Below, in pieces: positions 13,101 to 56,021 of a DNA stretch of 64,000 nucleotides; the stretch's first letter is position 1, and the number at the start of each line of letters is the position of its first letter. This DNA comes from an uncultured delta proteobacterium (GTDB lineage Bacteria; Desulfobacterota; Desulfobacteria; Desulfobacterales; JAFDCJ01), in assembly GCA_963769935.1 (NCBI GenBank), contig CAVYNY010000017.1, positions 96,001-160,000 of the forward strand, in the 5' to 3' direction. The notes under the pieces were generated by a model, which was given only the letters and a program-made list of their open reading frames with translations, ran no database searches and was not told where the DNA came from. The translations under genes and the position numbers were made by a program.

Positions 13101-13146
13101 AAGGGGTGTGATCCTAGAAAAAATTCAGGCAGCCGGCGATTTCTGA
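10129..13146 (+). CDS. Fused membrane (MFS-like)/spermidine synthase-like SAM-fold protein
   Basis: SGAAALMYEVVW, duplicated membrane halves, VIGLGTG, VEIEP, DGRNFL, DVITADP. Confidence 0.85.
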   Translation: MQFILTLVYLIFFLSGAAALMYEVVWVRSLSLIFGGTHLAVTSVLSVFMGGLALGSFLIGKRVDAVKNPLRLYGLLEIGIALSAVIFIFLMKIYPAIYIVLVQGKENAGLYLIFIRVLFALTVLIWPTTLMGGTLPLLTRFVSSRPEKLGGQLSFLYGFNTLGAVVGTAAAGFWLLRFYSVSTTLYIAILINSLIGILSIVIAPKASIAPDRLTMGPNYADLNGVGKTLHQAATPSELEIRFPFRVVFLGIGISGFCALGYEVLWTRILTLTIGTSVYGFTIMLVAFLTGIAFGSKAYGLLQKLLPSKAMGTKNQIVGFGLVQGSIGVCALVITYYVRDLPVNSINLYEFFVGRGFEVFAARQWANLTLAFSYMVVPAFFMGLAFPIAGSVNAIYRKKAGHAIGDVLAVNTVGAIFGSAVSGYFLIYIFGIERSLQLLTVLNIGLGLLVMLSIRNIKLLNRGVVALTAAVLVLLILRPNFMRMWDAEFFAIFQNNLPDAYDTLAKKRDAVENTNVLFYREGVDSTISSIKIKGGIQALLVNGKVVASSSAQDRQCQLTLGHLPMLLHKDPRKILVIGLGTGMTLGAVSVHPNLEELTLVEIEPNVIGAARTFANFNNHVLENPKLQIVFNDGRNFLTTTKNKYDVITADPIHPWTQGSGYLYTAEYFNLASQHLLPGGIMCQWLPIYELSVADLKSVTRTFALSFRYTMAWMTQYDAELIGSNEPIIINEAELERRIARPPISKDLEPVMMGTATDFLSYFVMGSKAVTEFSRNGIINTDDNLYLEFSTPVSVGKDVMQTNANAIAQYQEDIFPYLLPAGDDAAREQQRKKWRDATEAAVIADRARALFLGGHYDSPKFRQALAVLDNKYPWFAPGRFLKQQYEAELSKVPSLLQNISLILLNEKGAPIRLVISAVIVRVSKVRAAAVFVDNAARDIYGQRYFSGSDLDKTIAGYVSGVMAAIRSIYERETQIAVSRGRKFPAADPTKKKIRGVILEKIQAAGDF

Positions 13147-30666: not shown

Positions 30667-30842
30667 ATATGAGACTGCATCTCACACAGAGCGCTCAGAG
30701 GTCACAGAGGTTCGGGTTAGTAGTCGCCTGCGGCGAAAGAAAAATGTTCTCCGCGGTCTCTGCGAGCTCTAACGAAGTGGGCGTGATAGTAAGTCCAACT
30801 GTGTCCGAATTCCCAAAAGTTTCTTTCTCGATTAATCTGGCC
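30667..30842. repeat. Composite intergenic repeat element, copy 1
   Basis: Shares arms GGCCRG..ATCRARAAAGAAAC and TGMAGTYTCATAT, plus an internal CACAGAG/CTCTGCG hairpin, with 53092-53268 (opposite orientation). Confidence 0.6.
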
Positions 30843-31596
30843 TTCTTTTGGGTAAAGTCAGGAACACTTTGCGGCTGAACTTATGAAGCACCGGGGTTCC
30901 CATGCCGTGCCGGATGGCTTTCAGGGTTTTTTCTTTGTCGATCGGCACGGTGCCGGCGAGCATAGCGACCGGCAGGTGACGGAAGGCCTCCGCCGCCATG
31001 GGCGTGCTGGGACCGAGCATCACCGTTTTTACCTTTTCCGCGACATTGGCCAGAATTTCTTCAGTGCTGTTGTTCAAAATGGAAGTGGAGGTCAACAGCA
31101 GTACCTGGGCCCAGTTTTTCAGCTTTTTATAGAATTCTTCCTTGTGGCCGAGTCCTCTGGAAGTATCCAGAATCTCCACGAAACTCCATTTTTTTCAAAG
31201 TTTCTGACCAGCGGACCGAAGTAGCCGACCATGGCGACCCGGCGGCCCCGGCCGATTTTAAATCTTTCGAACATGAGGCTGTTGTCGTCATCTTCGGGCA
31301 GCTCAAGGGCCGCTCGGTAGTTGAGGGCATTGATCAGGGCCAGGGCCATGCTTTTTTCAATGGGTATGTCGCTCTTAATTTTTTCAAGGAGCTGTTCCGC
31401 CGGATCGGCCTTCATAATCGACGCGGGTATTTAAAACCATGCAGGACTTTTTATCGCTAAAGTAGGTGTATGACAGGCCGATCCCGCCATCGGAGGTGGT
31501 GACGGCGGTGTAGCCGAGACCCAGGCTTAGTATCGTTACATTGACCTTTCGGGCCTGTTCGATGAATAGATCATAAAGCCTATTGTTTAATTCCAT
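30832..31596 (-). pseudogene. DUF364 (Rossmann-like) protein in three frames
   Basis: GLGYTAV, LALINAL, VAMVGYFGP, MLGPSTP; two single-base indels near 31405 and 31180. Confidence 0.75.
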
Positions 31597-31884: not shown

Positions 31885-32048
31885 CTAAGAGCTCACTCAA
31901 AGATAACTTCCCATTTTATACGCCGCTGCATCCCGCCCGGCTGCGTTGCGAAAGCTCGGAATATCCAGATATTCCTGCGTTTTCGCGCCTTGCCGGCCGG
32001 GCGCCGCAACGCCTAAAATTGTGAACTTATTTTTGAGTGAACCCTTAG
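31885..32048. mobile_element. MITE-like element
   Basis: About 35-bp imperfect terminal inverted repeats CTAAGAGCTCACTCAAAGATAACTTCCCATTTTA / TAAAATTGTGAACTTATTTTTGAGTGAACCCTTAG with nested internal stems. Confidence 0.7.
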
Positions 32049-32091
32049 GTTTGCCGCCGTCGTGCTCATAAATAGAATGGATTCCATCATC

Positions 32092-32913
32092 ATGCGAAAA
32101 TTTAGTCCAGCAAGACATATACTGTCGATGTTTCTCGGTTTATTTATAGTGCCGGCTTTTTTCGGCATTGCCTGGGGTCATCATGAAAGCATTCCGTGTG
32201 CGACGTGCCATGATAAGACGGCGGAAGAGCTCAAAGATTATGTCCACGACAGTACTAAATTTCCAATCAGTGCGCGCTGTCTTGCCTGCCATGACGGCAG
32301 CATGGATGTATCCGGACTTAATCCGCCTCATGTTATCAACGGCCGGAAGGAATTGGCCGGCGGTTCTTTTTCGCCCACAATTTTTTCCGACACCGTCGGC
32401 CATAATATTCTATCCATTGATCAGGAACAGGGATTGACCCCCCCGGGCGGCGCTTCCCTGGATGATTTTGGCTGTTTAAGCTGCCATGACGCCCACGACA
32501 ACGGAAATTTTCGCAATCTGAAAAAAAAGATAAATGGATACGCAACCTTGGTCGAGGCGGATGGCGACCCGAATTTTCAACAAAACGTTTACATTTCCGG
32601 AATCAACGATTTTTGCGGGGCGTGTCACGAGCGGTTCAACCGCACCCGCAACAGCCGTGGGGCAAGAGGGTGGCGTCAGCATCCTGTGGGAATTACGATA
32701 TCCGGCTCCCGACATGCCGATTTCAACCACTGGTCCAGCCAGTCCGAGCGCATCACCCAGGCCGAATATCCATCGGGAAATTCCTCTGACCTTTACGGAG
32801 CCCAGTTGATCTGTCTTTCATGCCACCGCGCCCATGCCACACCTTATAATAATGCGCTGCGCTGGGATTACAGCCAAAATTCCCAGGGATGTCTGGAATG
32901 TCACCCCTTTTAA
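32092..32913 (+). CDS. Short OmcS-like hexaheme cytochrome c
   Basis: 6 CxxCH; GGSF, GHNI, PPGG, CLSCHDAH, HPVG and CLSCHRAHA motifs colinear with 40689..41873; start approximate. Confidence 0.8.
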   Translation: MRKFSPARHILSMFLGLFIVPAFFGIAWGHHESIPCATCHDKTAEELKDYVHDSTKFPISARCLACHDGSMDVSGLNPPHVINGRKELAGGSFSPTIFSDTVGHNILSIDQEQGLTPPGGASLDDFGCLSCHDAHDNGNFRNLKKKINGYATLVEADGDPNFQQNVYISGINDFCGACHERFNRTRNSRGARGWRQHPVGITISGSRHADFNHWSSQSERITQAEYPSGNSSDLYGAQLICLSCHRAHATPYNNALRWDYSQNSQGCLECHPF

Positions 32914-32970: not shown

Positions 32971-33906
32971 TTACTCCTTAACGGCAAATACCTGTATGCG
33001 GTTGTTGTTCGTATCGGCAATAAAGATGTTCCCGCTCTTGTTGATGCACAGTTGAGAGGGATAATTTAAAAGACCTTCTTTCCAGCCCATCGCCGACAGT
33101 CGCCCCAGGAAGGATCCATCCGGCCCGAGAATGATGACCCTGCTGCCATTGTGGTCGACCAGATACATATGTCCCCGGTTATCGGTGGTTATGGCGGTCG
33201 GAAACCGCACATATTCCTTCAAGCTTTGGGTCAGCGGAGAAAACTCGGCCGAATCCTTGGCCGCCGAAAATACCTTGGCATTGATGCTATCGATCAAGAA
33301 AACCGTTCCTTTAAAATCCACTGTGAGATCCGAGAGGAAACCGTAGGCTTTCGGGAATTTTTTTTGTGCCAGGTATCGGCCCTCAGAGTTCAACACCAGG
33401 ATGCGCTCGGAAAATATATCTAAAATATAGATGTCGTCATTGCGGTCGATACAGAAACTGCGCGGGACATATGTCGGGGAAGGCAGTCCGGTCGGATTCA
33501 GGTCGCCGATAAATGCGCCGGCCGGGGTCAGGCGCACAATTCGGCGTTTTTTGCGGTCGAGCACGAAAATTTCGCCTTTGGAATTTAGCTGCACCCGGGT
33601 CGGATAGGCCAGCTCGGGCATCTTAATTGCCGGCGAGCCGCCGCTGATGGTTTGATCCCGCAATATATAGCGCAGGAGCCGGCCGTTTCCGGTGTCCGCT
33701 ACAATTACATGGGATTGGTCATCACAGGCAATGCCTTCAGGCTGCTTGAGCGGCGTGCCATCCTGGCCGGCGGTGCTCGTCTGAGCGGCATAAATGGTTG
33801 TGATATAGCTGAACTTCAACACTTCGGTCCCGAAAGATGCGTCTGAAATCAACCCGAAACTCAGCGTGGCGGTTATCAGGACAATCGTTTTGATAAATGC
33901 GCTCAT
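32971..33906 (-). CDS. NHL-repeat beta-propeller, exported
   Basis: PEGIA, VADTGNGR, IADTNNNRIQVF; signal peptide from MSAFIK. Confidence 0.9.
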   Translation of the reverse strand: MSAFIKTIVLITATLSFGLISDASFGTEVLKFSYITTIYAAQTSTAGQDGTPLKQPEGIACDDQSHVIVADTGNGRLLRYILRDQTISGGSPAIKMPELAYPTRVQLNSKGEIFVLDRKKRRIVRLTPAGAFIGDLNPTGLPSPTYVPRSFCIDRNDDIYILDIFSERILVLNSEGRYLAQKKFPKAYGFLSDLTVDFKGTVFLIDSINAKVFSAAKDSAEFSPLTQSLKEYVRFPTAITTDNRGHMYLVDHNGSRVIILGPDGSFLGRLSAMGWKEGLLNYPSQLCINKSGNIFIADTNNNRIQVFAVKE

Positions 33907-33919
33907 TGCGGTTGCAGTC

Positions 33920-35239
33920 TCACTTTCTGCGTTCGGGATGGCATTGGATGCACAAGTCATAAGTGGTTTCAAACGGCATCATATTGGGCTTGTTTCCGGT
34001 ACCGCAGGCCTTGTGACAGCTCAGGCATTCTACGGTAAGGTTCTTATCTCTCGGATCAATCACCTTTTCTCCAATCGGGTGGGTGGCATGGGTCTCCCAT
34101 TGATGACATTTACCGCAAATTTTCTCACCGATGGAGAGTTGCGGCGGCATGAGAAGGATATTGTCCGCCGCATGGGGTGCATGACAGGCGGTGCAGTTGC
34201 CCGTTTTTACAGGTTCGCACAAAGTCGTATTTTTGGGATTCTTGATCGACCATTGCTGCAGTCTAACCGTATCTTCATGACATCTGCCGCAGGTTTCGCC
34301 GATGGATTTTTCCAGAAGCTTTTTTTGTTTTGAGCCATGGGGATTGTGGCAGTTCAAACATCCGACTTTGTCCGTCAGCGGCCAGTGCACCCGGCTTTTG
34401 GCGAAAATCGCATCCACCGCATCGCGGTGACATTGCCGGCACAGTTCCGTTCCCTGTTTTTTGGTCCTGGTGGCATTCGGCGAGCCGGCATCGAAATGGC
34501 ATTCGGTGCATTTATTTTCGGCGACCGGAGGATGGACTTGATCGTATAAAATACCGCGGGTATTGGATCCATGCGCGCTGTGGCAGGAGTCGCAGTTCGT
34601 ATCGGCAACAGGGTAGCCCAGGTGTTTGCGTTTAAACGAAAGCTGGTTGGTTTTATGGCATTCCGTGCAGAGGGCCGGAACGACGTTTTTTAACAGATAC
34701 TCCGACCTTGCCGATGCGTGCGGATCGTGGCAGTTGAGGCAGCCTTTGCCCTTCATCAATGGATCGTGTTTGAATCGTACTTCGTTGGTTTGCTTACCGA
34801 CATCCTGGTGGCAATTCACGCACAGCGCATTGCCCGATTTGTTGAGAAGGAAGCTGTTGTCCGACCCGTGGGAATTGTGGCAGGTCTGGCAGTTGCCGTC
34901 AACGACCACCTTATGGATGCTGCGCGCTTTGTCCGGCACGACTTGTTGATGGCAACTGCGGCAAAGCGTATTGACGTCCGAAACTAAAAGATTCTTATGG
35001 CTGGAAGTATGCGGATCATGGCAGGCGGTGCAATCTCCCTTTTTAAGCAGCGGATGCACGGACCGTTGTTTGCTCGTTTTGGCCACGTCCTCGTGGCATT
35101 TCAGGCATTGGGTGCCTTTGGCGCCGGGCTGAAGACTAACCTTATGCTGCGGGTATGCCGGCGCAGCAAAGACCATCGTTAAAATTGTGCCGATTAATAA
35201 AAATCGGGCAGATTTAAGGTTTATAAAGTTTCGTCGCAT
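33920..35239 (-). CDS. 16-heme periplasmic cytochrome c
   Basis: 16 CxxCH counted, paired CxxCHxxH repeats, signal peptide. Confidence 0.9.
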   Translation of the reverse strand: MRRNFINLKSARFLLIGTILTMVFAAPAYPQHKVSLQPGAKGTQCLKCHEDVAKTSKQRSVHPLLKKGDCTACHDPHTSSHKNLLVSDVNTLCRSCHQQVVPDKARSIHKVVVDGNCQTCHNSHGSDNSFLLNKSGNALCVNCHQDVGKQTNEVRFKHDPLMKGKGCLNCHDPHASARSEYLLKNVVPALCTECHKTNQLSFKRKHLGYPVADTNCDSCHSAHGSNTRGILYDQVHPPVAENKCTECHFDAGSPNATRTKKQGTELCRQCHRDAVDAIFAKSRVHWPLTDKVGCLNCHNPHGSKQKKLLEKSIGETCGRCHEDTVRLQQWSIKNPKNTTLCEPVKTGNCTACHAPHAADNILLMPPQLSIGEKICGKCHQWETHATHPIGEKVIDPRDKNLTVECLSCHKACGTGNKPNMMPFETTYDLCIQCHPERRK

Positions 35240-35241
35240 GG

Positions 35242-37317
35242 CTATTCGATAATATGGCAATCCTTACACGTTTTGTCGGCAAACGGCTTGTGGACGACGG
35301 CTTTAAAAAACTTGGGATCTGTAGAGGTATGGGGGTCATGGCATTTGCCGCAATCCATCCGGCCGGCATCGACGCTGAGATGGGCCGTTTGAAAAGAATT
35401 TTTCTTATAGTCATGGCATTTGCCGCACAACAGCTGGATAGGTTGCACCATCAGCGCTCGCTGGGCTGCAAAATGGGGTTTATGACATATTTGGCAATTT
35501 TTGAGATCCGAGGGGGCATGCACGTAAATTTTGGCAGTCGCTGCCATAGCGTCTTTTGCGCCGGCGGCGGGAACCTCGGCTTCAGCAGCCGGTTCTTCCT
35601 CCGGTGGGTACATCCTGGCCTTCAGGTCGCTATGGCAGGTCAGGCAGAGGTCCGGGTAATCCGCCAGCAGAAGATTTTTTAGATTCGCTTTATGCGGACT
35701 GTGACACTTCGTGCACTCGCCGGCGACAACCGGGTCGTGTTTGCTTGCGATGTCTTTTATTTCCTCCCCAGGATCCGTGCCGTGGCAGGAATAGCATAAA
35801 AATCCCTGTTTGGCGACGGTCATTCCGGCAAAATCGCTGCCGTGCGCAGCATGGCATTTAAGACACTTTCCGTTTTTAAAAAACTCATGGTTGGACCCTC
35901 CCACGGCTGCCTTCATCAAGTCGCCATGGCAAGCGGCACACAGTTTCGGGTCGTCTATGGCGGCCACTAGAAGTTTATTGTTCTTTGCGCCATGGGATCG
36001 ATGGCAGGACTCGCATTTTCCTTCGATTACCGGCAGGTGCGTATTCGTCTTCAGGAATTTGACTTCAGCGTCAAAATGACAGGCGTAACAAACCGTGTCG
36101 GTCTTGCCTTTGAGCATCCCGTAGAAATTCGATCCGTGGGGGTTGTGACAGACGTCGCATTTGCCCTCGGAAAAAGGCTCATGTCGGATGTGATCTTTTT
36201 GAGCCTCTTTGGTCTTCGCATGGCAGCCCAGGCATAGCGGCTGCTCTTCGGCCAGCAGAAGTTTTTGGGTTTTGGCCGCGTGTTTTTGATGGCAGGAAAG
36301 ACAGCCCCGGCCATCGGTTACCGCTTTGTGAGGGACGCTTGCCGGTACGTTTTTATTTTCGTGGCAGTCAAAACAGAGCGTATTGCCCGCTTTGACCAGC
36401 AAAACCGGATTCTCCGAAGCATGGGGAGCATGACAGGCAATGCATTTTCCTTCCCGGAAGGGTTGATGTTCGATGGTGCCGCCGGCCTTCAGATCGGCAG
36501 CCTTGTGGCAATCTTCGCAAAGTTGGGCGCCTTTTTGCCTGGTGGCAAAGGGGTTTTGAGACGAGGACGCATTGTGGCATTTTTCACAATCAAGCTTGAC
36601 CACCGGGGAATGCGCGCTGGTTTTTAAAAGCTTAAGTTGAGCCGAGGCGTGAGGGCTGTGACAGCCGGCGCAGGAAGCAGTTTCCACCGGATATCCGCGA
36701 TGGGCAGTTTTGAAAGCGGCCTGTTGGACGTTGTGGCAGGACATACACAGCGGCACTTCTTTCTTCCTGAGAAGATCGGCCTGATCCGAGCTGTGCGAGA
36801 AGTGACAGGTGTCGCAGGAATCTGTCTGCAACGGCTTATGCACCACCTTCTTTTGAAAGGCTTTTTGCGGATGGCACTGGTAGCACAGATCACTGCCGGC
36901 AGCCTTTAAGAGAGGGGTTGTCTGGGACGCATGCGGGTTATGGCAATCGGTGCATTTCCCGGTTTTCAAAGCGGTGTGCACCGCGGCTTTATCCAGTCCG
37001 ATTTTTTCAGGAGGATGGCAGGAATAGCAGAGGTCGTTGCCTTCCCTTTTCAGCAGTAGTTTAGGGATGATGCCGTGTCGCAGGTGGCAGTCTTCGCACT
37101 TTTTTTCCTTGACCACCGCGTGCACATCCTTCATTGCCAGATATTTTGCCGCAAAGTCGCTGTGGCAATCCAGACATTCCTTGCGGGCGAATTTACCCGT
37201 TTGGCGTGAAGGGGCCGGAACGCAGGCGGCTACATAAATAAAAATGCCGGCGGCCAATAGAATGGCGACTCCGGCAGATCCGGACAGCCTCGGTAATGAA
37301 ATCGTGGTTTTCCTCAT
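35242..37317 (-). CDS. 26-heme cytochrome c lipoprotein
   Basis: 26 CxxCH counted; lipobox VAAC. Confidence 0.9.
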   Translation of the reverse strand: MRKTTISLPRLSGSAGVAILLAAGIFIYVAACVPAPSRQTGKFARKECLDCHSDFAAKYLAMKDVHAVVKEKKCEDCHLRHGIIPKLLLKREGNDLCYSCHPPEKIGLDKAAVHTALKTGKCTDCHNPHASQTTPLLKAAGSDLCYQCHPQKAFQKKVVHKPLQTDSCDTCHFSHSSDQADLLRKKEVPLCMSCHNVQQAAFKTAHRGYPVETASCAGCHSPHASAQLKLLKTSAHSPVVKLDCEKCHNASSSQNPFATRQKGAQLCEDCHKAADLKAGGTIEHQPFREGKCIACHAPHASENPVLLVKAGNTLCFDCHENKNVPASVPHKAVTDGRGCLSCHQKHAAKTQKLLLAEEQPLCLGCHAKTKEAQKDHIRHEPFSEGKCDVCHNPHGSNFYGMLKGKTDTVCYACHFDAEVKFLKTNTHLPVIEGKCESCHRSHGAKNNKLLVAAIDDPKLCAACHGDLMKAAVGGSNHEFFKNGKCLKCHAAHGSDFAGMTVAKQGFLCYSCHGTDPGEEIKDIASKHDPVVAGECTKCHSPHKANLKNLLLADYPDLCLTCHSDLKARMYPPEEEPAAEAEVPAAGAKDAMAATAKIYVHAPSDLKNCQICHKPHFAAQRALMVQPIQLLCGKCHDYKKNSFQTAHLSVDAGRMDCGKCHDPHTSTDPKFFKAVVHKPFADKTCKDCHIIE

Positions 37318-37346: not shown

Positions 37347-39083
37347 TTATCTTTTAAGGTCGGTGCGATAAATTTTAACGGGATAATATGCTTTGAGCTT
37401 TTCGGCCCAAACCTCCACGGACTTTTTCAGTTTATCATCGAAAACCTTTTTGGCAATTTCCTGCTTGACCTCTTCAAAGGGTTGAAGCTGGGCCGGGACG
37501 ACCTGATAGATGTACAGCACATAATACCGGCCCCCGGGGCCTTCATACAGTCTGAAATCACCGGTCTTCGCTCTGGAAACCGCTTTTTGCACATTTTCCG
37601 GCATACTGCTTTCCGTTATCAGACTGCCGTCAAACTTTAAAATTCCTGGGGTATTTTGATCGACCTGACCTTCGGCATTGGAGCCTAGCCAGTTGAAGTC
37701 GGTACCCTTTTTGAGCTTATCGATGGCCGCCACGGCAGCGCTTCTTTGGTCAAATACGAGGCTTTTAATTCTCAACAGCCGGGGGGCGGTGTATTGTTCA
37801 GCGTTTTGGGAATAATAGGTTTTCAAATCCTTCGGTTCAAGCTTAATATCGGGGGCGACAGCCTTGCGGATGAACTCATCGAAGAGCAGAGAAATTTCAT
37901 ATTCCGTAACTTTTTGGCGATATTCGTCTGTTTTATCGAGTCCCTGCTTCAAGGCTTCTTTCAACAGCAGTCGTTTTTGAAGCATTTCTTCCAGGATGTC
38001 GCTTTTTTTGCTGTTGATTCTTTTATTTTTGGCGGCCAATTGGACTCCGTGGTAGAATTTCGCTTCAACGGCCGCGCTGAGGTCTGAAACGGTAATGGGT
38101 TTTTCGCCTTTAATCCGGGCCAGAACTCTTTTGTCCGTCAACAAATTTTCAAATCCCGGCTTTTCAGCTTCGTAGTCCAGCCGGTCTAAAAGCGTTTGAT
38201 CCAATTCAACATATTTTTTTTTCAATTCGCTGTAGTATTGTCTGGCCGCCTTAACTTTCTTCTGGTTAAGTGCCTGCCGCCGCGCTATTTCCTTGGCCTC
38301 CGGGTCCTCATCAGCCGGATAGCGGATATCTTCCAGTTTAAAGACGACAAATCCCTTTTTGCCGATGGAAAGAACCGGGCTGACCGATCCGACTTCCATT
38401 TGCGCCGCAAGCTGGGCCACCGGCAGCGTCAGGTCTTTGCTTTTTACATAATCGGCCCGGTTGTCCGCTTCGCCGATGCCCCAGTCAAGGGCTTTTTGCA
38501 AAACGTCGTCAAAACTGACGCCCGCTTTCAGCTGGGTTTGAATCTGCCTGGCAGCATCTTCCGTTTTCAGCCGAAGCGATTTGATCTTAAACTCCTTTAC
38601 CATGGATTTATAGCGCTGTTCAACCACGTCCTCATCGGCCGTAATATCTTTGACATAGCCTTCAAGCAAAAGCTCCCTGAGGGCTTGTTTTGAGTATGTA
38701 TCCAGCGCCGCTTTAATTTCGGGAAGCTCATCCAGTCCCATGTTCCTTGCTTCCAATACGATCAATCGCGTATTGATCAGGCGCTGCATAATGTCGGAAA
38801 AATCGATCCGGCCGGCTTTTTCTCCCCTGGGCCGGGCGGCATGGGAAGCGGCCACGGCGCGATCCAATTCCTCCAGGCTGATCGGATCGTCATTGACGGT
38901 TGCGACGGCTTCTTTACCGTCAATGATCGGCAATTTCTGATCAGACGCCTTGCCGTAGCCGGCAGCTGCCAGGAGAAAAAAACTGGCCGTCACGATGATC
39001 AGCACTGATGAAACTGGTTTCAGGCGCATTGGATTCCTTTTCGGATGTGCTCTCGTGGGTACACTGAGGCGGAAAAAAGCCAT
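37347..39083 (-). CDS. SurA/PpiC-like peptidyl-prolyl isomerase chaperone (duplicated module)
   Basis: VATVNDDPIS, LIVLEARNMGLD and a second copy VLARIKGEKPIT; alternative start at 39029. Confidence 0.8.
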   Translation of the reverse strand: MAFFRLSVPTRAHPKRNPMRLKPVSSVLIIVTASFFLLAAAGYGKASDQKLPIIDGKEAVATVNDDPISLEELDRAVAASHAARPRGEKAGRIDFSDIMQRLINTRLIVLEARNMGLDELPEIKAALDTYSKQALRELLLEGYVKDITADEDVVEQRYKSMVKEFKIKSLRLKTEDAARQIQTQLKAGVSFDDVLQKALDWGIGEADNRADYVKSKDLTLPVAQLAAQMEVGSVSPVLSIGKKGFVVFKLEDIRYPADEDPEAKEIARRQALNQKKVKAARQYYSELKKKYVELDQTLLDRLDYEAEKPGFENLLTDKRVLARIKGEKPITVSDLSAAVEAKFYHGVQLAAKNKRINSKKSDILEEMLQKRLLLKEALKQGLDKTDEYRQKVTEYEISLLFDEFIRKAVAPDIKLEPKDLKTYYSQNAEQYTAPRLLRIKSLVFDQRSAAVAAIDKLKKGTDFNWLGSNAEGQVDQNTPGILKFDGSLITESSMPENVQKAVSRAKTGDFRLYEGPGGRYYVLYIYQVVPAQLQPFEEVKQEIAKKVFDDKLKKSVEVWAEKLKAYYPVKIYRTDLKR

Positions 39084-39132: not shown

Positions 39133-39147
39133 GCAATTACTATGCCA
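39133..39147 (-). promoter_or_regulatory. Sigma54 -24/-12 promoter (chaperone-26heme-16heme-NHL operon)
   Basis: TGGCAT-AGTAA-TTGC on the minus strand. Confidence 0.85.
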
Positions 39148-39308: not shown

Positions 39309-39405
39309 TCCTTTATAAACCATGCATTTCGTTTAGTACGCGCTGAATTTTTATAACAATTTGTTATTAAATAACAATCGATCAATGACGCCCCTTGCCG
39401 CCGCG

Positions 39406-39420
39406 TGGCACACTCGTTGC
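39406..39420 (+). promoter_or_regulatory. Sigma54 -24/-12 promoter (NHL-omcS operon)
   Basis: TGGCAC-ACTCG-TTGC, consensus match. Confidence 0.9.
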
Positions 39421-39486
39421 AATTATCGTTGCAATAACTATTGGGACCTGATATCTGGTAATAGCTTGAATTGCAGGATTACCGCG

Positions 39487-40473
39487 ATGAAACGTATGCT
39501 CGACAAAATCAAACACTCCATTTCAGCCGCTCTTCGACCGGCGGTTGTCACATTTTTGTTGAGTGCCGTATGGGTTGCAGGTGTCCCGGCCGAAGTTCAG
39601 GCCGAGGTTCAAACCTCCTTCCTTTACCGGCTGTCCAATTTTTCAGGACCCGTGGCTTCCAATTGGGCAACGATCTCAGTTGATCAAGCCAGAGACGAAA
39701 TTTATGTAACCGACGGCCAGTCGGGCATTATCCGGATTTATAATGATCGGGGCATGGAGGTTTATCGTTTTGGCGATGACTGGAATTCAGGCAGCCTCCT
39801 GTTGGCAGCCGCCGCCCGAAATGATGGAAACATTCTCGTCTTGACCCGCAGGTTCTCCGCAAATTCAATTGTGCTCTGCAATTTCAGAGGCGAGTTTCTG
39901 GCCGTACTTGCTTTGCAAGACTTCCCCCCCGATTTTTCGGGTTTTTCACCGACAGACATGGTTTACCGAGACAGACGGCTTTACCTGCTGGATAATAATT
40001 TACTGCGGCTGGCCGTCACCGATTCCAACGGTTATTTCATGGCCGGCTACGATCTCGGCGCGCTGTTGAAGATCGACGATAATAAGCGAATGGCAACCCA
40101 GCTCGGCGGGTTCAGCGTGGATCACGCTGGGAACATATACTTTACCGTGCCGGTGCTTTTTACAGCCTTTAAACTTTCGCCGGACGGTAAGCTGGCAAGC
40201 TTCGGCAAGCCGGGAAGCGCTCCCGGCCGGTTTAACAATCTGGGGGGAATTGTCGCCGATGACCAGGGCTATATTTATGTGGCGGACCGGTTAAAGTCGG
40301 TTGTCATCATATTTGATAAAGATTTCAAGTTCGTGAATGAGTTCGGTTATCGCGGACGCCGGCCGTATAATCTGATAGCTCCCAATGATTTGGATCTGGA
40401 TGCCGCCGGCCGGCTGTATGTGTCCCAGCTGGCCAGTATCGGCGTCAGCGTCTTTAAAATTATCTACCAGTAG
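39487..40473 (+). CDS. NHL-repeat beta-propeller upstream of omcS
   Basis: FGKPGSAPGRF, IYVADRLKS, EFGYRG; the ATG at 39487 lies downstream of the promoter. Confidence 0.88.
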   Translation: MKRMLDKIKHSISAALRPAVVTFLLSAVWVAGVPAEVQAEVQTSFLYRLSNFSGPVASNWATISVDQARDEIYVTDGQSGIIRIYNDRGMEVYRFGDDWNSGSLLLAAAARNDGNILVLTRRFSANSIVLCNFRGEFLAVLALQDFPPDFSGFSPTDMVYRDRRLYLLDNNLLRLAVTDSNGYFMAGYDLGALLKIDDNKRMATQLGGFSVDHAGNIYFTVPVLFTAFKLSPDGKLASFGKPGSAPGRFNNLGGIVADDQGYIYVADRLKSVVIIFDKDFKFVNEFGYRGRRPYNLIAPNDLDLDAAGRLYVSQLASIGVSVFKIIYQ

Positions 40474-40688: not shown

Positions 40689-41873
40689 ATGAAAACAATT
40701 AAATTATGCTTAGCCATGATGGCCGCGGTCCTGCTGTCCTTCGGATTAAGTACCGCGGCCCTGGCCTTCCACAACGGCGGCGTGGCGCACTGTGACGGCT
40801 GCCATACCATGCACAACTCGGAAAACGGCCAATCCATCATTGAAGGGGGAGTTGTCGGCGTAACCGGCGACTACCTGACCAAGGGCACCGACCCCGGCTC
40901 CACGTGTTTGACCTGTCACGCGGGAAGCGGCAGCTACCATGTACTCAGCGATGACGGCTCCAACCAGACCCCGGGCGGCGATTTCTACTGGCTGACCAAA
41001 ACTTTCAGCTATCCGGTGCGCAGCAGCACTGTAACCCGCCACGGGTACAACTTCGGGCACACGATCATCGCCGCAGATTTCGGTTTTTTGACTCCGGACC
41101 CCGATCTGGCTCAAGCCCCCGGAGGCACCTTTCCATCGGCACTGTTGACCTGCAGCAGCTGTCATGACCCGCACGGTGTCAAGGTTAACCGGACCGGACC
41201 CATTGCCGGATCAGGCTCCTACGGTAACGCACCTCCGCCCGGCGCGGATCTGGGAAATTATCGGCTTCTGGGCGACATCGGATACCGGCCGGCGAGCGGC
41301 ATCGTGACATTTACAAACTCGCCGCCGATCGCCGCCACCACCTCAATTGCTCCCAATCCAGAGAGCGACAGCAACCACACCGACTACGGCAAGGGCATGT
41401 CCGAATGGTGCTCCAACTGCCACACGGCTTTTTTGGCACCCGGGGGGGCGGGACAGCATAAGCATCCGGCCGGCAATACCTCCGGCCTGGGCGCCGCCGG
41501 CATTTTCAATAACTACAACAGCTATGTCAAGACAGGCGATTTAACGGGAAATGCCGCAACCTCTTACCTGGCGCTGGTGCCTTTTGAAAGGCAGATCTCG
41601 GATTCGACGCTGTTAGATTCGCACAGTACCCAGGGACCGGATGGAAGTTCGAACGTTATGTGCCTGTCGTGCCATCGGGCCCATATTTCGGCTTTTCCGA
41701 ACTCGGGGCGCTGGGATTTCGAAACCGAACTGCTGGTCAATTCCCATCCGCAGGATACCGATACGGGAGCAATTGCCGGGGATCAGCTGGCCAGCTACTA
41801 CGGCCGGGATATTGCGACCGTTTTCGATCCCGAGCAGCGGAGTCTGTGCAACAAATGCCACGTCAAGGACTAA
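40689..41873 (+). CDS. omcS: OmcS-family hexaheme nanowire cytochrome
   Basis: Mature start FHNGGVAHCDGCHTMHNS, TPGGDF, APGGTFP, CSSCHDPHG, GMSEWCSNCH, YNSYVKTGDLTG, CLSCHRAH, C-terminus QRSLCNKCHVKD; closely parallels Geobacter OmcS/OmcT. Confidence 0.93.
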   Translation: MKTIKLCLAMMAAVLLSFGLSTAALAFHNGGVAHCDGCHTMHNSENGQSIIEGGVVGVTGDYLTKGTDPGSTCLTCHAGSGSYHVLSDDGSNQTPGGDFYWLTKTFSYPVRSSTVTRHGYNFGHTIIAADFGFLTPDPDLAQAPGGTFPSALLTCSSCHDPHGVKVNRTGPIAGSGSYGNAPPPGADLGNYRLLGDIGYRPASGIVTFTNSPPIAATTSIAPNPESDSNHTDYGKGMSEWCSNCHTAFLAPGGAGQHKHPAGNTSGLGAAGIFNNYNSYVKTGDLTGNAATSYLALVPFERQISDSTLLDSHSTQGPDGSSNVMCLSCHRAHISAFPNSGRWDFETELLVNSHPQDTDTGAIAGDQLASYYGRDIATVFDPEQRSLCNKCHVKD

Positions 41874-42058: not shown

Positions 42059-43489
42059 TTGAAGATGCCGCGGCTGAATCGATATTTTGTTTTTTTGCTG
42101 GCTGTGCTTATCGGCGGCTGTTTTCCCCTCGAACCGGACGTTGACGTTGCCGTCCTTAAAATGCCCCTGGGACAGGATGGCGAAGTGATTTTATACCTGC
42201 AGCAGCTGCCGCCGGAAGCCGACAAGCTTCGCTTTGATATCGACGGGATTTCCGCCGTAAGGGATGACGGCTCGGTGGTGCCCTTATCCCTTTCCCTGAC
42301 CGGCCTGAAAGGCGCAGATCTCGCGGGGCTTCAAAAATTGATGGCAAGCGGGGTTCTGACCCCGGGCCATTACACCGGACTCTCCATCCGGATCAAGCAG
42401 GCCTGGGTCGAGACCGCCGAAGGTGAGGCCGCGCTGAAAGTTCCCGAGGAACCGCTGAGCGTGGCGCATCCCTTCGACGTGGCCCGGGAAAAAGCCTCGG
42501 CCCTGTTTCTGACGCTTAATCCCGGCCGGCAGATTACGGGGGAGAATCGATTTGCGCCTGTTTTCAGCCTGGCGTCAGCCGGCCAATTGCTGATCAATCT
42601 CACCGCTCTCGTCAGCAACCCCGAAACCAATCTCATCACAGTTTTCAACAAAGCGACCATGCAGGTGGCCGATGCGATTGCCGCCGGCCAGGGACCCATG
42701 GCACTGGCCCTCGACCAGCTCCGGGGCCTGGTGTATGCAACGGTTGCGCGGGATGACGCCATTTTGGCGATCGACGTCTTCAAACGGCAGATTATCAACA
42801 GGCTGAAACTCAATTTCAGGGACAATCCGGTCGATTTGGTCCTGACCCCCGACGGCCGGCGGCTGGTGTCGGTTAACCACGACTCCAATACGGTCAGCCT
42901 TATCGATGCCTTCTCGATGACGGAGGAAAGAAGAATCAGGGTCGGTGAGGGGCCGGCCGCTGCGGTTATGGACCCATCGGGTTCAAGGGTCTACATTTTA
43001 AATACGCGCTCGCGATCGATTTCGGTGGTGGATCTGTCCCAAAACACCCTGGTGGTTACGATCGGCGTCGAGGCGTCTCCGCTGAGAGGCACGTTTAATC
43101 GTGAAGGCGATATGCTATTTGTTATCAGCGGCGATTCACCTTACCTCACCGCCATCGATCGATCCCGGCTGGCCGTCACTGGAAAAATTTTTGTGGGGAC
43201 GGGGGCTGTTTCCATAAAGGCCGACAATCAAAGCGGTCTGCTCTATGTCGGCCGCAAGACCGGCGGCGAAATCGCCGTCATCGAACCGTCTTCTTCGATG
43301 TTTGTCGACACATTTCAGGTCGGCGGCAGGCCGGTGTTCCTGGCGATTGACGAGCAGGAGAGATCGCTGTTTGCGGCGCTTTCCGACCGTAAAATCCTTC
43401 AGAAAATCAATCTCATCAGCAAGAAGGTCGTTGCTGAAATAGAAGTGGGGAAGGGGGCTTACGCAATTGTGGTCATGGGCGAGAGGTAG
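42059..43489 (+). CDS. Lipoprotein with beta-sandwich N-domain and YVTN/YncE beta-propeller
   Basis: Lipobox IGGC; repeats VSVNHDSNTVSLID, RIRVGEGP, EIEVGKG. Confidence 0.8.
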   Translation: MKMPRLNRYFVFLLAVLIGGCFPLEPDVDVAVLKMPLGQDGEVILYLQQLPPEADKLRFDIDGISAVRDDGSVVPLSLSLTGLKGADLAGLQKLMASGVLTPGHYTGLSIRIKQAWVETAEGEAALKVPEEPLSVAHPFDVAREKASALFLTLNPGRQITGENRFAPVFSLASAGQLLINLTALVSNPETNLITVFNKATMQVADAIAAGQGPMALALDQLRGLVYATVARDDAILAIDVFKRQIINRLKLNFRDNPVDLVLTPDGRRLVSVNHDSNTVSLIDAFSMTEERRIRVGEGPAAAVMDPSGSRVYILNTRSRSISVVDLSQNTLVVTIGVEASPLRGTFNREGDMLFVISGDSPYLTAIDRSRLAVTGKIFVGTGAVSIKADNQSGLLYVGRKTGGEIAVIEPSSSMFVDTFQVGGRPVFLAIDEQERSLFAALSDRKILQKINLISKKVVAEIEVGKGAYAIVVMGER

Positions 43490-43492: not shown

Positions 43493-45688
43493 ATGGGCCG
43501 GACGATTTTCCCTTGTATCTGTCTGATTGCGATTTTCTTTTGGATCCATGCCCAATTGGGTTCAAGCGCCAGGGCCGACAGCGTGGACTTTAATACCGAC
43601 CATCGGTATATCGATTCCAGAGGCACGACCAAATTTAAACTTACCGGGGAAAATCTCGATACCAATTATGAGCAATTTAATCAGCTCTACAATCTTAACC
43701 TTTCAAAAAACATTTATCCTTATCTGCTTTTTAACAGTGGAACCGTATACCAGATAAATTCAACCTCGTCTTCAAGCGGAGACAACAACGTCGATACCGA
43801 GGAGAAGATTCTGACTCCCTTTGCCGAACTGAACCTTACCAATCCGATATACCAGGCCGGCCTTGCCTATCACAAAAGAAGAATCGAGGAAGATGTAACC
43901 GATGTGCCTGATACCCGGGCAGACCGCGATGAAATCACCGGGACGCTGGGGATGAACCCCCCTTCCGACTTGTTTCCGGATTGGAGCCTGCGCTACAGCG
44001 ATATCCACACCTACGACGATCCGGAAACCCAGGATCAGTTTCAGAAGGTGTGGATGCTGGATACCGCCTACACGCCTTTGAGTGGCCTCTTTCTCGACTA
44101 CTCGTACGCGCGCACCGATACCGAAGAAAAACTTCAGAATTTCGATACGGTCGAACAATCGCATCTGGGTACGGCCGAATATTCCCGCAATTTTTTCAAC
44201 CAACGCCTGTCCATGGACACCTCCTATACGGTCAATTACAGCAAATTTGAGTTTTCGAGAGGCAGCGGTACTTCCGAAGTTCCATTGCTGCGGTTTGCCG
44301 GTCTTTCGTCGCTGAGCAATACACCGGACGACGGCCCGGCGATGGGTACCAACCCGGCTTTAATCGACGGCAATCTGACGGCCTCGGCCGGCCTGAATAT
44401 CGGAACCGCCGGCGATCAGAGCCAGCCGGTCAACATGGGGCTCGATTTCGGATTTGCGATCGATGTGGATACCCTCCATGTATGGGTGGATCGCCGTCCG
44501 ACCAGCACGGTTGTCAACTCTTTTTCCTGGAGTGTTTATACCAGTCCGGATAATACGGATTTCAGCACCTGGACCCTGGTTGCAACCGTGTCCCCAGCCA
44601 ATTTCGGGACGCTCGACAATCGCTTCGAGATATCTTTTCCCCGGGTCAATACGCGGTTTATCAAGGTGGTGACGGCCGCGCTGTCTCCTGTTGTTCCCGG
44701 TGCGGGGAGCTTCCCGAATATCTTTGTCACCGAGTTGCAGGCCTTTATCACGACCTCGGGGACATCCTTCAATACCCAAAGCAGCGTCCTGAATCAAAAC
44801 TATAACCTCGGTCTCAGAGGCAAGCTCAGCGCCAGTACCCTGCTTGGCTATAATCTGTTCTATAACCAGCAGGATACAGATCCGGGCAATATCAAACGCA
44901 CGCAATATACCAACGGTCTTTATTTGAATCATACCTTCAACGATACCTTTTCCGCCAACGCCAACGGTCAACGCACCGACATCTCCAATGACGTTGCGAA
45001 TGGAACCGAGGATTCCTACAATTACACGTATGGGACTTCCCTAAGGGCAAATTGGCTGGCCACGTTCAATCAGGCGCTGACGTTCAGCGGGTCATATGAC
45101 AACACCGTTCTGGGATCATCTTCGCAGAACGCCCTGTTCCTGCGCAATAATGCCATTCTTTATCAAGGCTGGAGTGCGTTTTTGGATACCGGCTACACCT
45201 GGGAAGAGCCTGAAATCGGATCCCGCATATCCAGTGTTATTATCAGACAGGGCACAAACCTGCAGCCGAACCAAAAAATCAGCCTTAATCTAAGTTTTTC
45301 GTATAAGCGAACCATGCAATCCGGCGAAGACGTCGGACCCAGCGACGAAACCAGATGGGACATACAGGGATTTTATATACCGTTTCGCAATCTGTCTTTT
45401 TTTGCCAAAGTAAATTCGGTCTACCGGGATGGTTCGACGGACACATTTCAGAATTACACCGTGAACTGGTCGCCTTTTCCGGATGGCGATCTGCAGTTTT
45501 TTTTCGTTTTTAACGAAATCCTGTTGTCTGAAAGCAACCAGGAAGAAAGGGTAGTCGGACCGGGTTTGAAATGGACCATCGGTCCGCACATCTCTTTAGA
45601 TATGTCCTACAATTATACGACCAGCGACAACGATACCGAGAAAATTGAATCAAACGTTTTCAGTGCGGATTTAAGGACCCATTTTTAA
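43493..45688 (+). CDS. Large outer-membrane beta-barrel with inserted discoidin-like domain
   Basis: Signal peptide, alternating Y/N/S-rich beta-strands, C-terminal Phe (DLRTHF); central ALIDG..TRFIKV..VTELQA insert. Confidence 0.75.
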   Translation: MGRTIFPCICLIAIFFWIHAQLGSSARADSVDFNTDHRYIDSRGTTKFKLTGENLDTNYEQFNQLYNLNLSKNIYPYLLFNSGTVYQINSTSSSSGDNNVDTEEKILTPFAELNLTNPIYQAGLAYHKRRIEEDVTDVPDTRADRDEITGTLGMNPPSDLFPDWSLRYSDIHTYDDPETQDQFQKVWMLDTAYTPLSGLFLDYSYARTDTEEKLQNFDTVEQSHLGTAEYSRNFFNQRLSMDTSYTVNYSKFEFSRGSGTSEVPLLRFAGLSSLSNTPDDGPAMGTNPALIDGNLTASAGLNIGTAGDQSQPVNMGLDFGFAIDVDTLHVWVDRRPTSTVVNSFSWSVYTSPDNTDFSTWTLVATVSPANFGTLDNRFEISFPRVNTRFIKVVTAALSPVVPGAGSFPNIFVTELQAFITTSGTSFNTQSSVLNQNYNLGLRGKLSASTLLGYNLFYNQQDTDPGNIKRTQYTNGLYLNHTFNDTFSANANGQRTDISNDVANGTEDSYNYTYGTSLRANWLATFNQALTFSGSYDNTVLGSSSQNALFLRNNAILYQGWSAFLDTGYTWEEPEIGSRISSVIIRQGTNLQPNQKISLNLSFSYKRTMQSGEDVGPSDETRWDIQGFYIPFRNLSFFAKVNSVYRDGSTDTFQNYTVNWSPFPDGDLQFFFVFNEILLSESNQEERVVGPGLKWTIGPHISLDMSYNYTTSDNDTEKIESNVFSADLRTHF

Positions 45689-45882: not shown

Positions 45883-46476
45883 ATGGTTAGAGCGGCAAAT
45901 CGCACACATTTCAGGCTCTGTCTTTTATCCTTTATCCTTATTTTTTCGGTTGCCTGCGGTTCCAAATACAACATATCCGAAAATTACCATGACCCGGATG
46001 TCGATTTCGCGCTCCTGCGGACTGTGGCCGTGATGCCGTTTTCCAATCTGACCAATGATAAGCTGGCGGGGGAAAGGGTGCGCAGTACTTTTATGAACAG
46101 CCTCCTGTCTACCGGCGCGCTTTATGTGATTCCTCCCGGGGAGGTGGCGCGCGGAATTTCACGGGCTGGAATCGACAACCCATGGGCCCCATCCGGCGAG
46201 GATATCAACAAATTCGCGGCGATTGTCGGTGCCGATTCCGTGATTACCGGGGTTGTCACGGAATATGGGGAGGTACGGTCGGGCGCCGTAACGGCCAATG
46301 TGATATCATTGAGCATGCAAATGCTTGAGAAAGATTCACGCAAAGTCATATGGTCTGCAGCCACTACCAAAGGCGGGATATCCATCTGGGATAGGCTTTT
46401 CGGCGGCGGCGGCCAGCCCATGGAAGATGTAACCCAAGCGGCGGTAGATGATATTATCAATAAACTTTTCTATTAG
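45883..46476 (+). CDS. CsgG/DUF799-like lipoprotein
   Basis: Lipobox SVAC, VAVMPFSNLT, ADSVITGVVTEY, KVIWSA. Confidence 0.75.
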   Translation: MVRAANRTHFRLCLLSFILIFSVACGSKYNISENYHDPDVDFALLRTVAVMPFSNLTNDKLAGERVRSTFMNSLLSTGALYVIPPGEVARGISRAGIDNPWAPSGEDINKFAAIVGADSVITGVVTEYGEVRSGAVTANVISLSMQMLEKDSRKVIWSAATTKGGISIWDRLFGGGGQPMEDVTQAAVDDIINKLFY

Positions 46477-47584
46477 GACGGCTGTCCTTCTGCTTGCATT
46501 TCTGCTTTGCAATTCAAGTGCTGCAGCCCAAAATGACGCGGCCGATGAAGCGGCTGTCCCCAAGACCAGCGGCAGTACTGAACGGCTTAAAATTGCAGTC
46601 TATCCGGTCTCAAACCTCAGCGGAAGCACCGCGCCGCTTGCCGCCATAGGCCTGCAGCTGATCGGGGAGCTTAAAGATTCGGACGCCACCCTCATCGAGG
46701 GTGACGTCCTTGACAGCGTCATTACCAAATACCGTGTTCGTTACCTGGGCGGTCTTGATAAGGCGACCGCGCAGGCGCTGCGGCGGGATGCCGGGGCCGA
46801 TTGCGTTCTGATAACATCGTTGGAGCTTTACAGTGAAGTAGTTCCCCCCAAAATTGCGTTGACAGCCCGGTTGGTTTCAACCGGAAGTAAGACGGAAATT
46901 CTATGGATCGATGGTATCGGCCTGGCCGGTGACGACGCTCCCGGGCTTCTGGCGCATGGGTTGGTCGAAGACCCCCTGATGCTGATGAGAAGAGCCGTTC
47001 ATCGCCTGGCACAATCCCTGACAGTTTTTCTATCCGGGCAGGGGAAACGGGTGAATTCCCGGTCGCCCCAGAAAAAGTTCGCTCCCGAGGTCATCTACCG
47101 TAAAGATGTCCTGGCGGGCGACAAGACTTATAGAGTGGCGGTTGTGCCCTTTTTCAACCCGAGTGCCCGCACCTTCGCCGGAGAGATCCTGGCGCTGCAT
47201 TTTGTCAGACAGCTATGGGCGCTTGAGAATTTTAAGATCATTGAACCCGGCGTGGTGCGGCAGCAGCTTCTCAAATCAAGGATTATCATGAATAGCGGCA
47301 TTTCCCTGGCCGATGCCGATCTCATTGGCCACGAGTTGAATGCCGATCTCATTCTAAACGGCAAGGTCATTGATTATCAGGACTATCGAGGCTACAGCGG
47401 TATCGTCAAAGTGGATTTCTCGGCCCAGCTCTTCGAACGCGCCAGCCGCGAGGTGGTTTGGTCGGTAAAAAGCTATCATCAGGGGGATGACGGCGTTTTC
47501 TTTTTCGATTGGGGAAAGGTAAATACGGCTTACGCGATGGCCAGCCAGATGGTGCAGCTGGCGGTGGAGGAGATGGGTGAGTAG
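46448..47584 (+). CDS. Tandem CsgG/DUF799-like domain protein
   Basis: IAVYPVSNLS..EILW and VAVVPFFNPS..ADLILNGKVIDY..EVVWS. Confidence 0.7.
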   Translation: MILSINFSIRTAVLLLAFLLCNSSAAAQNDAADEAAVPKTSGSTERLKIAVYPVSNLSGSTAPLAAIGLQLIGELKDSDATLIEGDVLDSVITKYRVRYLGGLDKATAQALRRDAGADCVLITSLELYSEVVPPKIALTARLVSTGSKTEILWIDGIGLAGDDAPGLLAHGLVEDPLMLMRRAVHRLAQSLTVFLSGQGKRVNSRSPQKKFAPEVIYRKDVLAGDKTYRVAVVPFFNPSARTFAGEILALHFVRQLWALENFKIIEPGVVRQQLLKSRIIMNSGISLADADLIGHELNADLILNGKVIDYQDYRGYSGIVKVDFSAQLFERASREVVWSVKSYHQGDDGVFFFDWGKVNTAYAMASQMVQLAVEEMGE

Positions 47585-47712: not shown

Positions 47713-49281
47713 ATGAAGCCCGGTACCCAAAATCCGGTAATAACCCCTTTTCGACCTGAAATGAAAAAATCCTTGCCGTATATTTACGTCCTCGCCTTTT
47801 TTTCAGGTATGTGCATCATGGCCAATGAACTTTGTGCATCCCGACTCGTGGCACCCTATTTCGGTACCTCCTCCTTTGTCTGGACCAACATCATCGGCGT
47901 CATAATGATTGCCCTCTCGGCCGGTTACGTTATCGGCGGGAAGCTCGCCGATCGGAAACCAAGGCTTGGTATCCTGTTGAAGCTGCTCCTGGCTGCTTGT
48001 GTGTTTCTCTTCCTGCTCCCTTTTGTGGTTTACCCCGTTGTCCAGGGGCTCTCATCTTTCTTGGAGAGCTTCAACTCCTCATTTTCGTTCATATTTTTCG
48101 GATCGCTCTTAGCCATAATTTTCCTGTTCTCTCCACCGATCGTGATCTTGGGCATGACCAGTCCTTTCCTTATACGCATTGTTGCCCGGACCGACCACGT
48201 GGGGGGCTCTGTAGGGCGCATTTTCGGCATCTCAACCATCGGGAGCGTCGTTGGAACATTTTTGCCTGTCCTTGTGCTCATTCCGGCCATCGGCACAAGC
48301 AAGACGATCCTGTTCTTTTCCTCAGCCCTCTTCGTCGTCGCCGCTCTGGGTTTCACTGGAAAAACAAGGGCGCTTCTTTCAGTAGCGGCGATCGTGCCGT
48401 TCCTTTTCCCGGTGCCGGACGCGAGGCGAACTCCGGGAAAGATCTACGCGACGGAGTCGTCCTATCAGTATATAGAGGTGTTCGACATAGGCTCTTACCG
48501 TTATCTCGTGTACAACAACGCAGCTGGATTTCAGACGGTCGCCAACAAGAGAAGTCCTCTCACAGGCCTGAACTACTACTACGACTACTATTCTCTCCTC
48601 CCCTTCATTTTTGAGGGCACGCCCAAAAAGGCCCTTATCATAGGCCTGGGGGGCGGCATTATCGCGAACCAGTTGCGCTACTTTCATCCGGAAATCATCG
48701 TAGATGGCGTCGAAATAGACCCGAAGGTCATACAGGTCGCCCGGAAATACTTCGCCCTTAGGTCCGATGCAGATGTATTCAATCAGGACGGACGTATCTT
48801 TGTGACATTGAGCAAAAAAAAATACGACATTGTCATCATCGATGCTTACACACGACAAGTCTACATTCCTTTTCACCTGACAACTGTGGAATTCTTCACG
48901 AAGCTGAAGGATAGACTTTCGGAACAGGGAATTGTCGCAATGAATGTTTCCGCGCCCAGAGAAGACTCGCCGCTCCTGCAGAGCATCATGAACACGCTGC
49001 GGCTTGTGTTCGGTCACGTGTATCTATTCAGAATCCCGATGTCTTACGACAATATCGTGCTCGTCTCAGACAGAAGCTTGGACTTCGGGTTGTTCGGACG
49101 GGCGGCCGGGACCGAACTTCAGGGCATCGCCCAGTTAAGCCGGCCCCTGTTCCGGGAAATCAAAACCAACGGCAAGTACGAACCGCTTACCGACGACCGG
49201 GCTCCCGTCGAACATATGGTGGATTGGGAGATTCTCAAACAGGAAATCAAGGCTGATAAAGCCGGACCCGGTGCCGGCTGA
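47713..49281 (+). CDS. Fused membrane/spermidine synthase-like protein
   Basis: SRLVAPYFGTS, IIGLGGG, VEIDP, DGRIF, IIDAY, LTDDRAPVE; the start may be 47761. Confidence 0.85.
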   Translation: MKPGTQNPVITPFRPEMKKSLPYIYVLAFFSGMCIMANELCASRLVAPYFGTSSFVWTNIIGVIMIALSAGYVIGGKLADRKPRLGILLKLLLAACVFLFLLPFVVYPVVQGLSSFLESFNSSFSFIFFGSLLAIIFLFSPPIVILGMTSPFLIRIVARTDHVGGSVGRIFGISTIGSVVGTFLPVLVLIPAIGTSKTILFFSSALFVVAALGFTGKTRALLSVAAIVPFLFPVPDARRTPGKIYATESSYQYIEVFDIGSYRYLVYNNAAGFQTVANKRSPLTGLNYYYDYYSLLPFIFEGTPKKALIIGLGGGIIANQLRYFHPEIIVDGVEIDPKVIQVARKYFALRSDADVFNQDGRIFVTLSKKKYDIVIIDAYTRQVYIPFHLTTVEFFTKLKDRLSEQGIVAMNVSAPREDSPLLQSIMNTLRLVFGHVYLFRIPMSYDNIVLVSDRSLDFGLFGRAAGTELQGIAQLSRPLFREIKTNGKYEPLTDDRAPVEHMVDWEILKQEIKADKAGPGAG

Positions 49282-55943: not shown

Positions 55944-56021
55944 CCCTAATTATTCAAATTTGGAAAATCTGGTCCTCTGGGCCAGGCCAGAGTAAACCGG
56001 CTAGGCCGAAGACATATGCCG

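Follow-up and report, generated by a model that had tools for sequence, protein, structure and literature searches.

How OmcS-type cytochrome wires are started and ended is the question raised by this locus. The window analyzed here, a stretch of 64,000 nucleotides, carries both of the OmcS-like hexaheme genes that a search of this genome turned up; no others were found. The short gene (32092..32913, plus strand) specifies a 273-aa cytochrome c with six CxxCH motifs, and an in-frame ATG five codons upstream (32077) is a possible alternative start. Its full-size neighbor (40689..41873, plus strand), 8 kb away, encodes a protein of 394 aa, 121 aa longer, that matches Geobacter sulfurreducens OmcS (6ef8) at E 3.6e-77. 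OmcS monomers are linked through His-16, which ligates heme V of the adjacent monomer (described in PMC13319180); eleven of the twelve ligands are internal, and the sole neighbor-derived one sits on heme 505 (structural description in PMC6584659). The initial annotation had reported that the short protein carries its six motifs in the OmcS order, is about 120 aa shorter and reads CATCHDKT where the full-size protein reads CDGCHTMH. The open reading frames bear out this description (273 versus 394 aa).

To map its sites, the short protein was aligned with a compact family comprising the best 120 of 285 homologs (from 2306 candidates searched) plus the query, nearly all of 255-290 aa. The chain starts with a likely Sec signal peptide ending in AWG (32092..32178), called by eye and with no lipobox seen; of 114 compact-family rows, 75 have AWG, AWS or AWA just ahead of the mature chain. 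All sites lie on the plus strand. The heme motifs, as read from the sequence, are CATCH (heme 1, 32197..32211, intact in 103 of 115 rows), CLACH (heme 2, 32278..32292), CLSCH (heme 3, within 32473..32496), CGACH (heme 4, 32614..32628), CLSCH (heme 5, within 32812..32835) and CLECH (heme 6, 32890..32904). Five further histidines are near invariant in this best-120 set and align with distal ligands of OmcS: His31 (32182..32184, 115/115 rows) with His2, a putative ligand of heme 2; His104 (32401..32403, 121/121) with His110, for heme 4; His135 (in the heme 3 segment, 115/121) with His147, for heme 1; His197 (32680..32682, 121/121) with His257, for heme 6; and His248 (in the heme 5 segment, 121/121) with His335, for heme 3. 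The place of the inter-subunit His16 is taken by Thr43 (32218..32220).

The missing residue is a property of the whole family. Three residues after heme 1 (position +3), histidine occurs in 0 of the 115 rows of the best-120 set that span the site, versus 119 of the best 120 OmcS-like homologs (drawn from the 3438 found with the full-size gene), the single exception being N-terminally truncated. In the wider superfamily, 79 of the best 150 representatives have six motifs; 69 of these keep the histidine, and five of the ten exceptions belong to the compact family. The difference between 0/115 and 119/120 argues that the loss is due neither to chance nor to sequencing error, and because no row has the His16 equivalent, the short protein is not classed as a self-polymerizing OmcS subunit. 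A substitute histidine, an outcome that would have counted against the initial annotation, was sought among the compact-family rows and no conserved one was found. His52 (23/116) and His80 (61/121) were rejected as poorly conserved, and histidines at +1 (six rows) and +5 (one row) are sporadic.

The OmcS layout consists of three repeats of the same order: a histidine, an odd heme, a histidine at +3 and an even heme. In the filament His16 ligates heme 5 in the preceding subunit, so each +3 histidine probably serves the preceding odd heme, and by this repeat logic His135 is predicted to serve heme 1. Among rows without an intact heme 1 motif, His135 is replaced by Asn in 5 of 12, largely from one subclade and so counting as about one event rather than five independent ones; the replacement is seen in none of the 103 rows with the motif, and His31 is always kept. 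Since His135 gives way to Asn only where heme 1 is gone, the OmcS ligand map appears valid in the compact family. Heme 5 of the short protein, we infer from the alignment, is left without an internal sixth ligand. Two large proteins, P0244 (1880 aa) and P0247 (1509 aa), are built of tandem compact modules of ∼240 aa that each retain the +3 histidine, as expected of the later modules if it serves heme 5 of the preceding one. As single proteins of tandem OmcS-like hexahemes, both are candidate covalent nanowires of fixed length. In another variant, L006:9935-10810 and its relatives P0089-P0117, the heme 1 motif is replaced by CxxCL or CxxCF with both cysteines kept. This subclade is a five-heme form, perhaps with a disulfide, and the only L006-type locus with genomic context is an orphan.

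Homology to OmcS becomes clear at the profile level. The single short sequence matches OmcS weakly (E 0.029), the compact-family profile finds it at E 3.5e-12, and profile-profile comparison, which lines up hemes 1-5 in sequence, gives a probability of 99.8 (E 3.2e-30). A structural model built from 148 rows reached pLDDT 89.3 and pTM 0.86, a confidence that depended on the His-keeping relatives among those rows; an AlphaFold2 model from the compact family alone (pLDDT 44.6) was left unused. The top Foldseek match of the short model is OmcS (probability 1.00, E 4.7e-4), and VIA-align superimposes the two at Z 16.0 and 3.2 Å rmsd over 224 of 244 residues with 24% identity, the next row having Z 5.7. 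The short protein is predicted to have the OmcS fold, and at Z 16.0 the model gives no sign of the different fold that could have overturned the earlier proposal.

The two ends of the chain differ in conservation. The comparison was made at like diversity (mean pairwise identity of 56% and 58% in the two sets). Over the two segments from the mature start to heme 2, mean top-residue frequency is 0.44 and 0.35 in the compact family versus 0.89 and 0.71 in OmcS-like proteins; over the remaining segments it is 0.65-0.76 versus 0.64-0.71. The N-terminal stretch that bears His16 is the most variable part of the compact family and among the most conserved in OmcS-like proteins, and between hemes 1 and 2 the compact family has no position conserved at 90%. 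As judged from these alignments, the donor (N-terminal) end is decayed and the heme-5/6 end is conserved. Such a variable stretch fits a subunit that only accepts, and equally a monomer. The heme 5-6 segment measures 21 residues in the compact family against 57 in OmcS-like proteins, and each heme of the short protein is accompanied by 41 residues against 61 in the full-size one. The earlier claim that this protein could accept the inter-subunit ligand and could not donate it gains support from the five of six distal histidines kept, the predicted OmcS fold and the decay of the His16-bearing stretch.

Phylogenetic analysis addresses the origin of the compact form. In a FastTree of 153 rows, with midpoint root and local support only, the compact family forms one branch of 49 rows (two of them read from heme 2), all without the +3 histidine; this branch is long and distant from the full-size neighbor. 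Eight His-less rows fall outside it, one a truncation artifact, which indicates that the loss of the +3 histidine is recurrent. Compact relatives that keep the histidine also exist (289 and 294 aa), so small size is best read as a compact form of the superfamily. A recent trimmed duplicate of the neighbor is ruled out by the tree distance together with these relatives; on this sequence evidence the short protein represents an old separate clade rather than a shortened copy.

Two full-size OmcS-like proteins also lack the histidine: L083:14046-15248 (genome G179; CEGCHVLN) and L025:9758-10888 (CQACHTMK). The former has other cytochrome genes as neighbors and is separated by ∼20 kb from the main OmcS-like gene, and no compact-family member was found in G179 within the order sample of 301 genomes; no cluster genes were found within the flanks of L025. 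Weaker matches in the same sample, from G232 and G318, keep the histidine and fall outside the compact family.

The genomic context of the family was examined at 56 loci (10 from GTDB, 46 from metagenomes), several apparently from the same organisms. A wire-type cluster adjoins 20 of the 24 loci with at least 3 kb of downstream sequence, the other four, from three organisms, being orphans; cluster genes are also present at 10 of the 32 loci with shorter downstream context. A second cluster type, with 33-42-heme proteins, carries the compact family as well (L007, L009 and L125), and in the last of these no His-keeping hexaheme gene was found within the flanks. Among 301 genomes of the order at least 85% complete, an OmcS-like gene was found in eight and the compact family in four, all among those eight. 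The short protein is therefore not a required part, the family not being found in 4/8 of the genomes with an OmcS-like gene. The nine genomes behind the GTDB loci, a sample that overlaps the 301, include seven with a close OmcS-like gene and one (G066) with three distant His-keeping ones; in G068 (2.9 Mb), which has a compact gene, no His-keeping hexaheme relative was found. On co-occurrence and histidine loss across omcS clusters, which the initial annotation had put forward as a check, the loss is uniform (0/115) and the four carriers all have an OmcS-like gene (4/4), but the compact gene is missing from 4/8.

In the window, the short gene runs toward the 3' end of a minus-strand gene set and lies outside both cluster operons. 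This set comprises, by family scan and motif count, a convergent NHL-repeat gene (32971..33972), a 16-heme cytochrome c (33920..35260), a 26-heme cytochrome c (35242..37317) and a SurA-like peptidyl-prolyl isomerase chaperone (37347..39083), with a sigma-54 consensus match with one mismatch ahead of it (39133..39147, minus strand). The plus-strand operon has an exact sigma-54 match (39406..39420) ahead of its NHL-repeat gene (39361..40473) and the full-size OmcS/GSU2501-like hexaheme, which keeps its linking histidine (His42, 40812-40814) and is the candidate partner. A YncE-like beta-propeller (42059..43489), a 731-aa putative outer-membrane beta-barrel (43493..45688; assigned from sequence pattern and position, no Pfam match) and two GNA1162/LpoB-like, lipoprotein-like proteins (45883..47584) follow on the same strand. 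Both cluster operons have a sigma-54 site, whereas none was found ahead of the short gene in the window or in 10 relatives. In contigs of related organisms from three sediment metatranscriptomes of one study, the OmcS-like gene is covered and the body of the short gene barely so; the contigs join the 3' end of the short gene to the NHL gene and cannot rank the genes. Immediately 5' of the short gene, at 31885-32050, lies a repeat of ∼165 bp with roughly 100 copies in the genome; it resembles a MITE or a REP-type element, and the promoter of the short gene may be influenced by it.

Binding between the two hexahemes was assessed by complex prediction. The pairing of the short protein with its full-size neighbor, with four hemes, received weak support, at 0.50 against 0.00 for the best control. 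The mark was attained for 116 of the 157 solved pairs and for 2 of the 215 mismatched ones; at or below 0.60 lay only 18 of these solved pairs, and both mismatches. The runs agreed in at least 87% of contacts and the partner had a pLDDT of at least 82, with no interface given. The partner alignment contained His-keeping relatives and the neighbor itself, and the pass may reflect likeness to the solved OmcS filament. The contact surfaces of the short protein may not match the neighbor, because the clade has a long branch and its heme 5-6 segment is short.

We consider it a realistic prospect, falling just short of an even chance, that the short protein is an accessory subunit that only accepts and occupies the heme-1 end of an OmcS-type wire. 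This end-subunit reading draws on the five distal histidines kept, the +3 histidine lost, the OmcS fold predicted and the linkage to wire clusters at 20/24 loci. Heme 5 of the short protein would offer an open axial site for His42 of the full-size protein. No His-linked subunit could be added past its heme-1 end, which would be closed, and the wire would extend at the opposite, heme-5/6 end. Were new subunits to join at the cell surface, in the manner of chaperone-usher pili, the short protein would be the first-laid tip subunit, its hemes surrounded by less protein (41 against 61 residues per heme); with the opposite wire polarity it would be a base adaptor. The idea that it ends the filament can be kept for the heme-1 end, which could be blocked, but not for the heme-5/6 end, which could not. 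Cap or nucleator remains a conjecture, given a weak binding prediction (0.50 versus 0.00) and an accessory, sometimes orphan gene. Against a core role stand the convergent gene, the sigma-54 site not found, the absence from four of the eight OmcS-like genomes and the orphan copies. More speculative, and rather unlikely in our estimate, is the wider proposal that the compact family is the missing tip, or initiator, of OmcS-type wires: accept-only, heme-exposed and laid first, with full-size subunits adding by His donation through the beta-barrel.

Much of this evidence must also be weighed for a monomer that has left the polymer and works on its own as an electron carrier or redox enzyme. Its heme 5 would stay five-coordinate and act as a reaction site, or as the place where another cytochrome, for instance the 26- or 16-heme protein, docks transiently. 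We hold this to be unlikely, though a serious contender. It would account for the separate convergent gene and its missing sigma-54 site, for the orphan copies and the carrier genome G068 with no His-keeping hexaheme found, for the loss of heme 1 in one subclade, for the variable N-terminal stretch equally expected of a monomer, and for the full-size His-less protein of L025 with no cluster gene in its flanks. It accounts less well for the strong linkage (20/24) to wire-type clusters, which are of two architectures, for the presence of an OmcS-like gene in every carrier genome of the order sample (4/4) and for the weak predicted binding to the neighbor (0.50 versus 0.00). These linkage arguments are softened because linkage would be expected, too, of a soluble partner in that pathway.

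Two further readings do without the inter-subunit bond altogether. Closure of heme 5 by a residue of its own (His208, Met, Lys or Tyr) would give a fully ligated monomer, neither donor nor acceptor, and candidates are present in the best-120 set: His208 in 95/121 rows, Lys144 in 119/121, Tyr167 in 121/121 and Met at 171 in 79/121. We judge this improbable. In 26/121 rows His208 gives way to Asn, Tyr, Gln, Glu, Gly, Pro, Lys or Asp, and it is no compensation for the missing histidine, because P0260 and P0271, relatives that keep that histidine, have it as well; the counterpart of Tyr167 in OmcS-like proteins is likewise a conserved Tyr. Least probable, in our view, is a polymer or dimer of the short protein itself held without inter-subunit His ligation. 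OmcZ is the precedent, its filaments forming with all ligands internal (as described in PMC9473688), and the heme-5/6 end is conserved; but the heme-1 end, which would need to contact the next subunit, has no 90%-conserved residue between hemes 1 and 2, and heme 1 itself is missing in one subclade.

Comparison with known systems places the end-subunit reading in context. The short protein resembles OmcS (GSU2504, G. sulfurreducens, 6EF8/6NEF) in the number (six) and order of its CxxCH motifs, in keeping all but one of the six distal histidines, and in its predicted fold, export signal and nearby wire-type cluster; it differs in lacking His16, in having 244 rather than 407 mature residues, a variable N-terminal stretch and a short heme 5-6 segment, and in its separate convergent gene. 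In chaperone-usher pili, a tip subunit such as FimH has an acceptor site and no donor element, starts the fiber and ends up at its tip. The likeness is one of logic only: there is no homology, and the donor here is a heme-ligating histidine, not a beta-strand. According to the main text of bioRxiv 2025.11.06.686851, OmcT, OmcJ and GSU2501 are OmcS-like hexahemes of unknown function beside an eight-gene secretion block, and wire formation is known for OmcS alone; the full-size gene of the window (40689-41873) occupies the GSU2501-type position. The survey described there was limited to proteins within 10% of OmcS length, so the 273-aa protein falls outside it, and the word histidine does not appear in that main text.

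The text of a 2026 paper (PMC13712944) poses the start and stop of cytochrome nanowires, and the appearance of their tip, as open. It expects the tip to resemble the main subunit with more exposed hemes, gives no candidate in OmcE operons, and pictures a hypothetical anchor with one histidine above twice the heme number. The short protein may fit this tip description for an OmcS-type system, the paper itself being concerned with OmcE; with 11 conserved histidines for six hemes, one too few, it is the opposite of the anchor. An oetABI cassette with OmcS-like, OmcX and Apc2a cytochromes is described for syntrophic sulfate reducers in the text of PMC10553843, and the window shares with it the 26- and 16-heme cytochromes, a porin, an OmcS-like protein and an origin in Desulfobacterota. 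Apc2a, described there as a cytochrome with 6-8 hemes and a mass of about 5.7 kDa for each, was compared by that description only: the L006 contig is not in the paper's tree archive, and the organism names of the compact family's close GTDB matches differ from those in the first part of its Apc2a tree. The literature searched, whose coverage left out most subscription journals and bioRxiv supplements, describes neither an OmcS relative without the histidine nor a tip or cap. None of the papers found identifies the end piece of OmcS-type wires, tip or seed, for which the compact family is a candidate. A conserved, cluster-linked protein of predicted OmcS fold with exactly one ligand missing makes a concrete tip candidate. 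Even as a soluble carrier only, it would be a natural non-polymerizing OmcS-fold protein, useful where filaments hamper structural or redox work and possibly for setting wire ends in bioelectronics. The case also shows that a protein with six motifs and homology to OmcS need not be a subunit of a nanowire.

Several other features of the window and its relatives were recorded. In the 16-heme protein (33920-35260), the second-last motif, near the C-terminus, reads CLSCHxxCG, with Cys at +3 where His is usual; the Cys is shared by the window and eight loci (L001-L005, L080, L082 and L087), and more distant loci have His. On this pattern a Cys-ligated heme is possible. Cytochromes with 42 hemes at L009:4003-7188, L029:15597-18725 and L090:4235-7426 resemble fusions of the 26- and 16-heme proteins, which suggests that the latter two form one continuous chain. 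The DUF4213/DUF364 gene at 30832-31415 (minus strand) is seemingly split across two overlapping frames, and RNA contigs of related organisms show a one-base difference at 30808, near this gene. Spermidine-synthase-like membrane proteins, named by eye, are encoded at 10129-13146 and 47713-49281, and similar genes adjoin the short gene in L001, L003, L004 and L114. At the far end of the window, 53532-64000 encodes a cytochrome with 20 hemes, an NHL protein and several cytochromes with 3 to 7 hemes whose membrane partners resemble cytochrome b; this gene set recurs beside the cluster in relatives and is likely its inner-membrane link.
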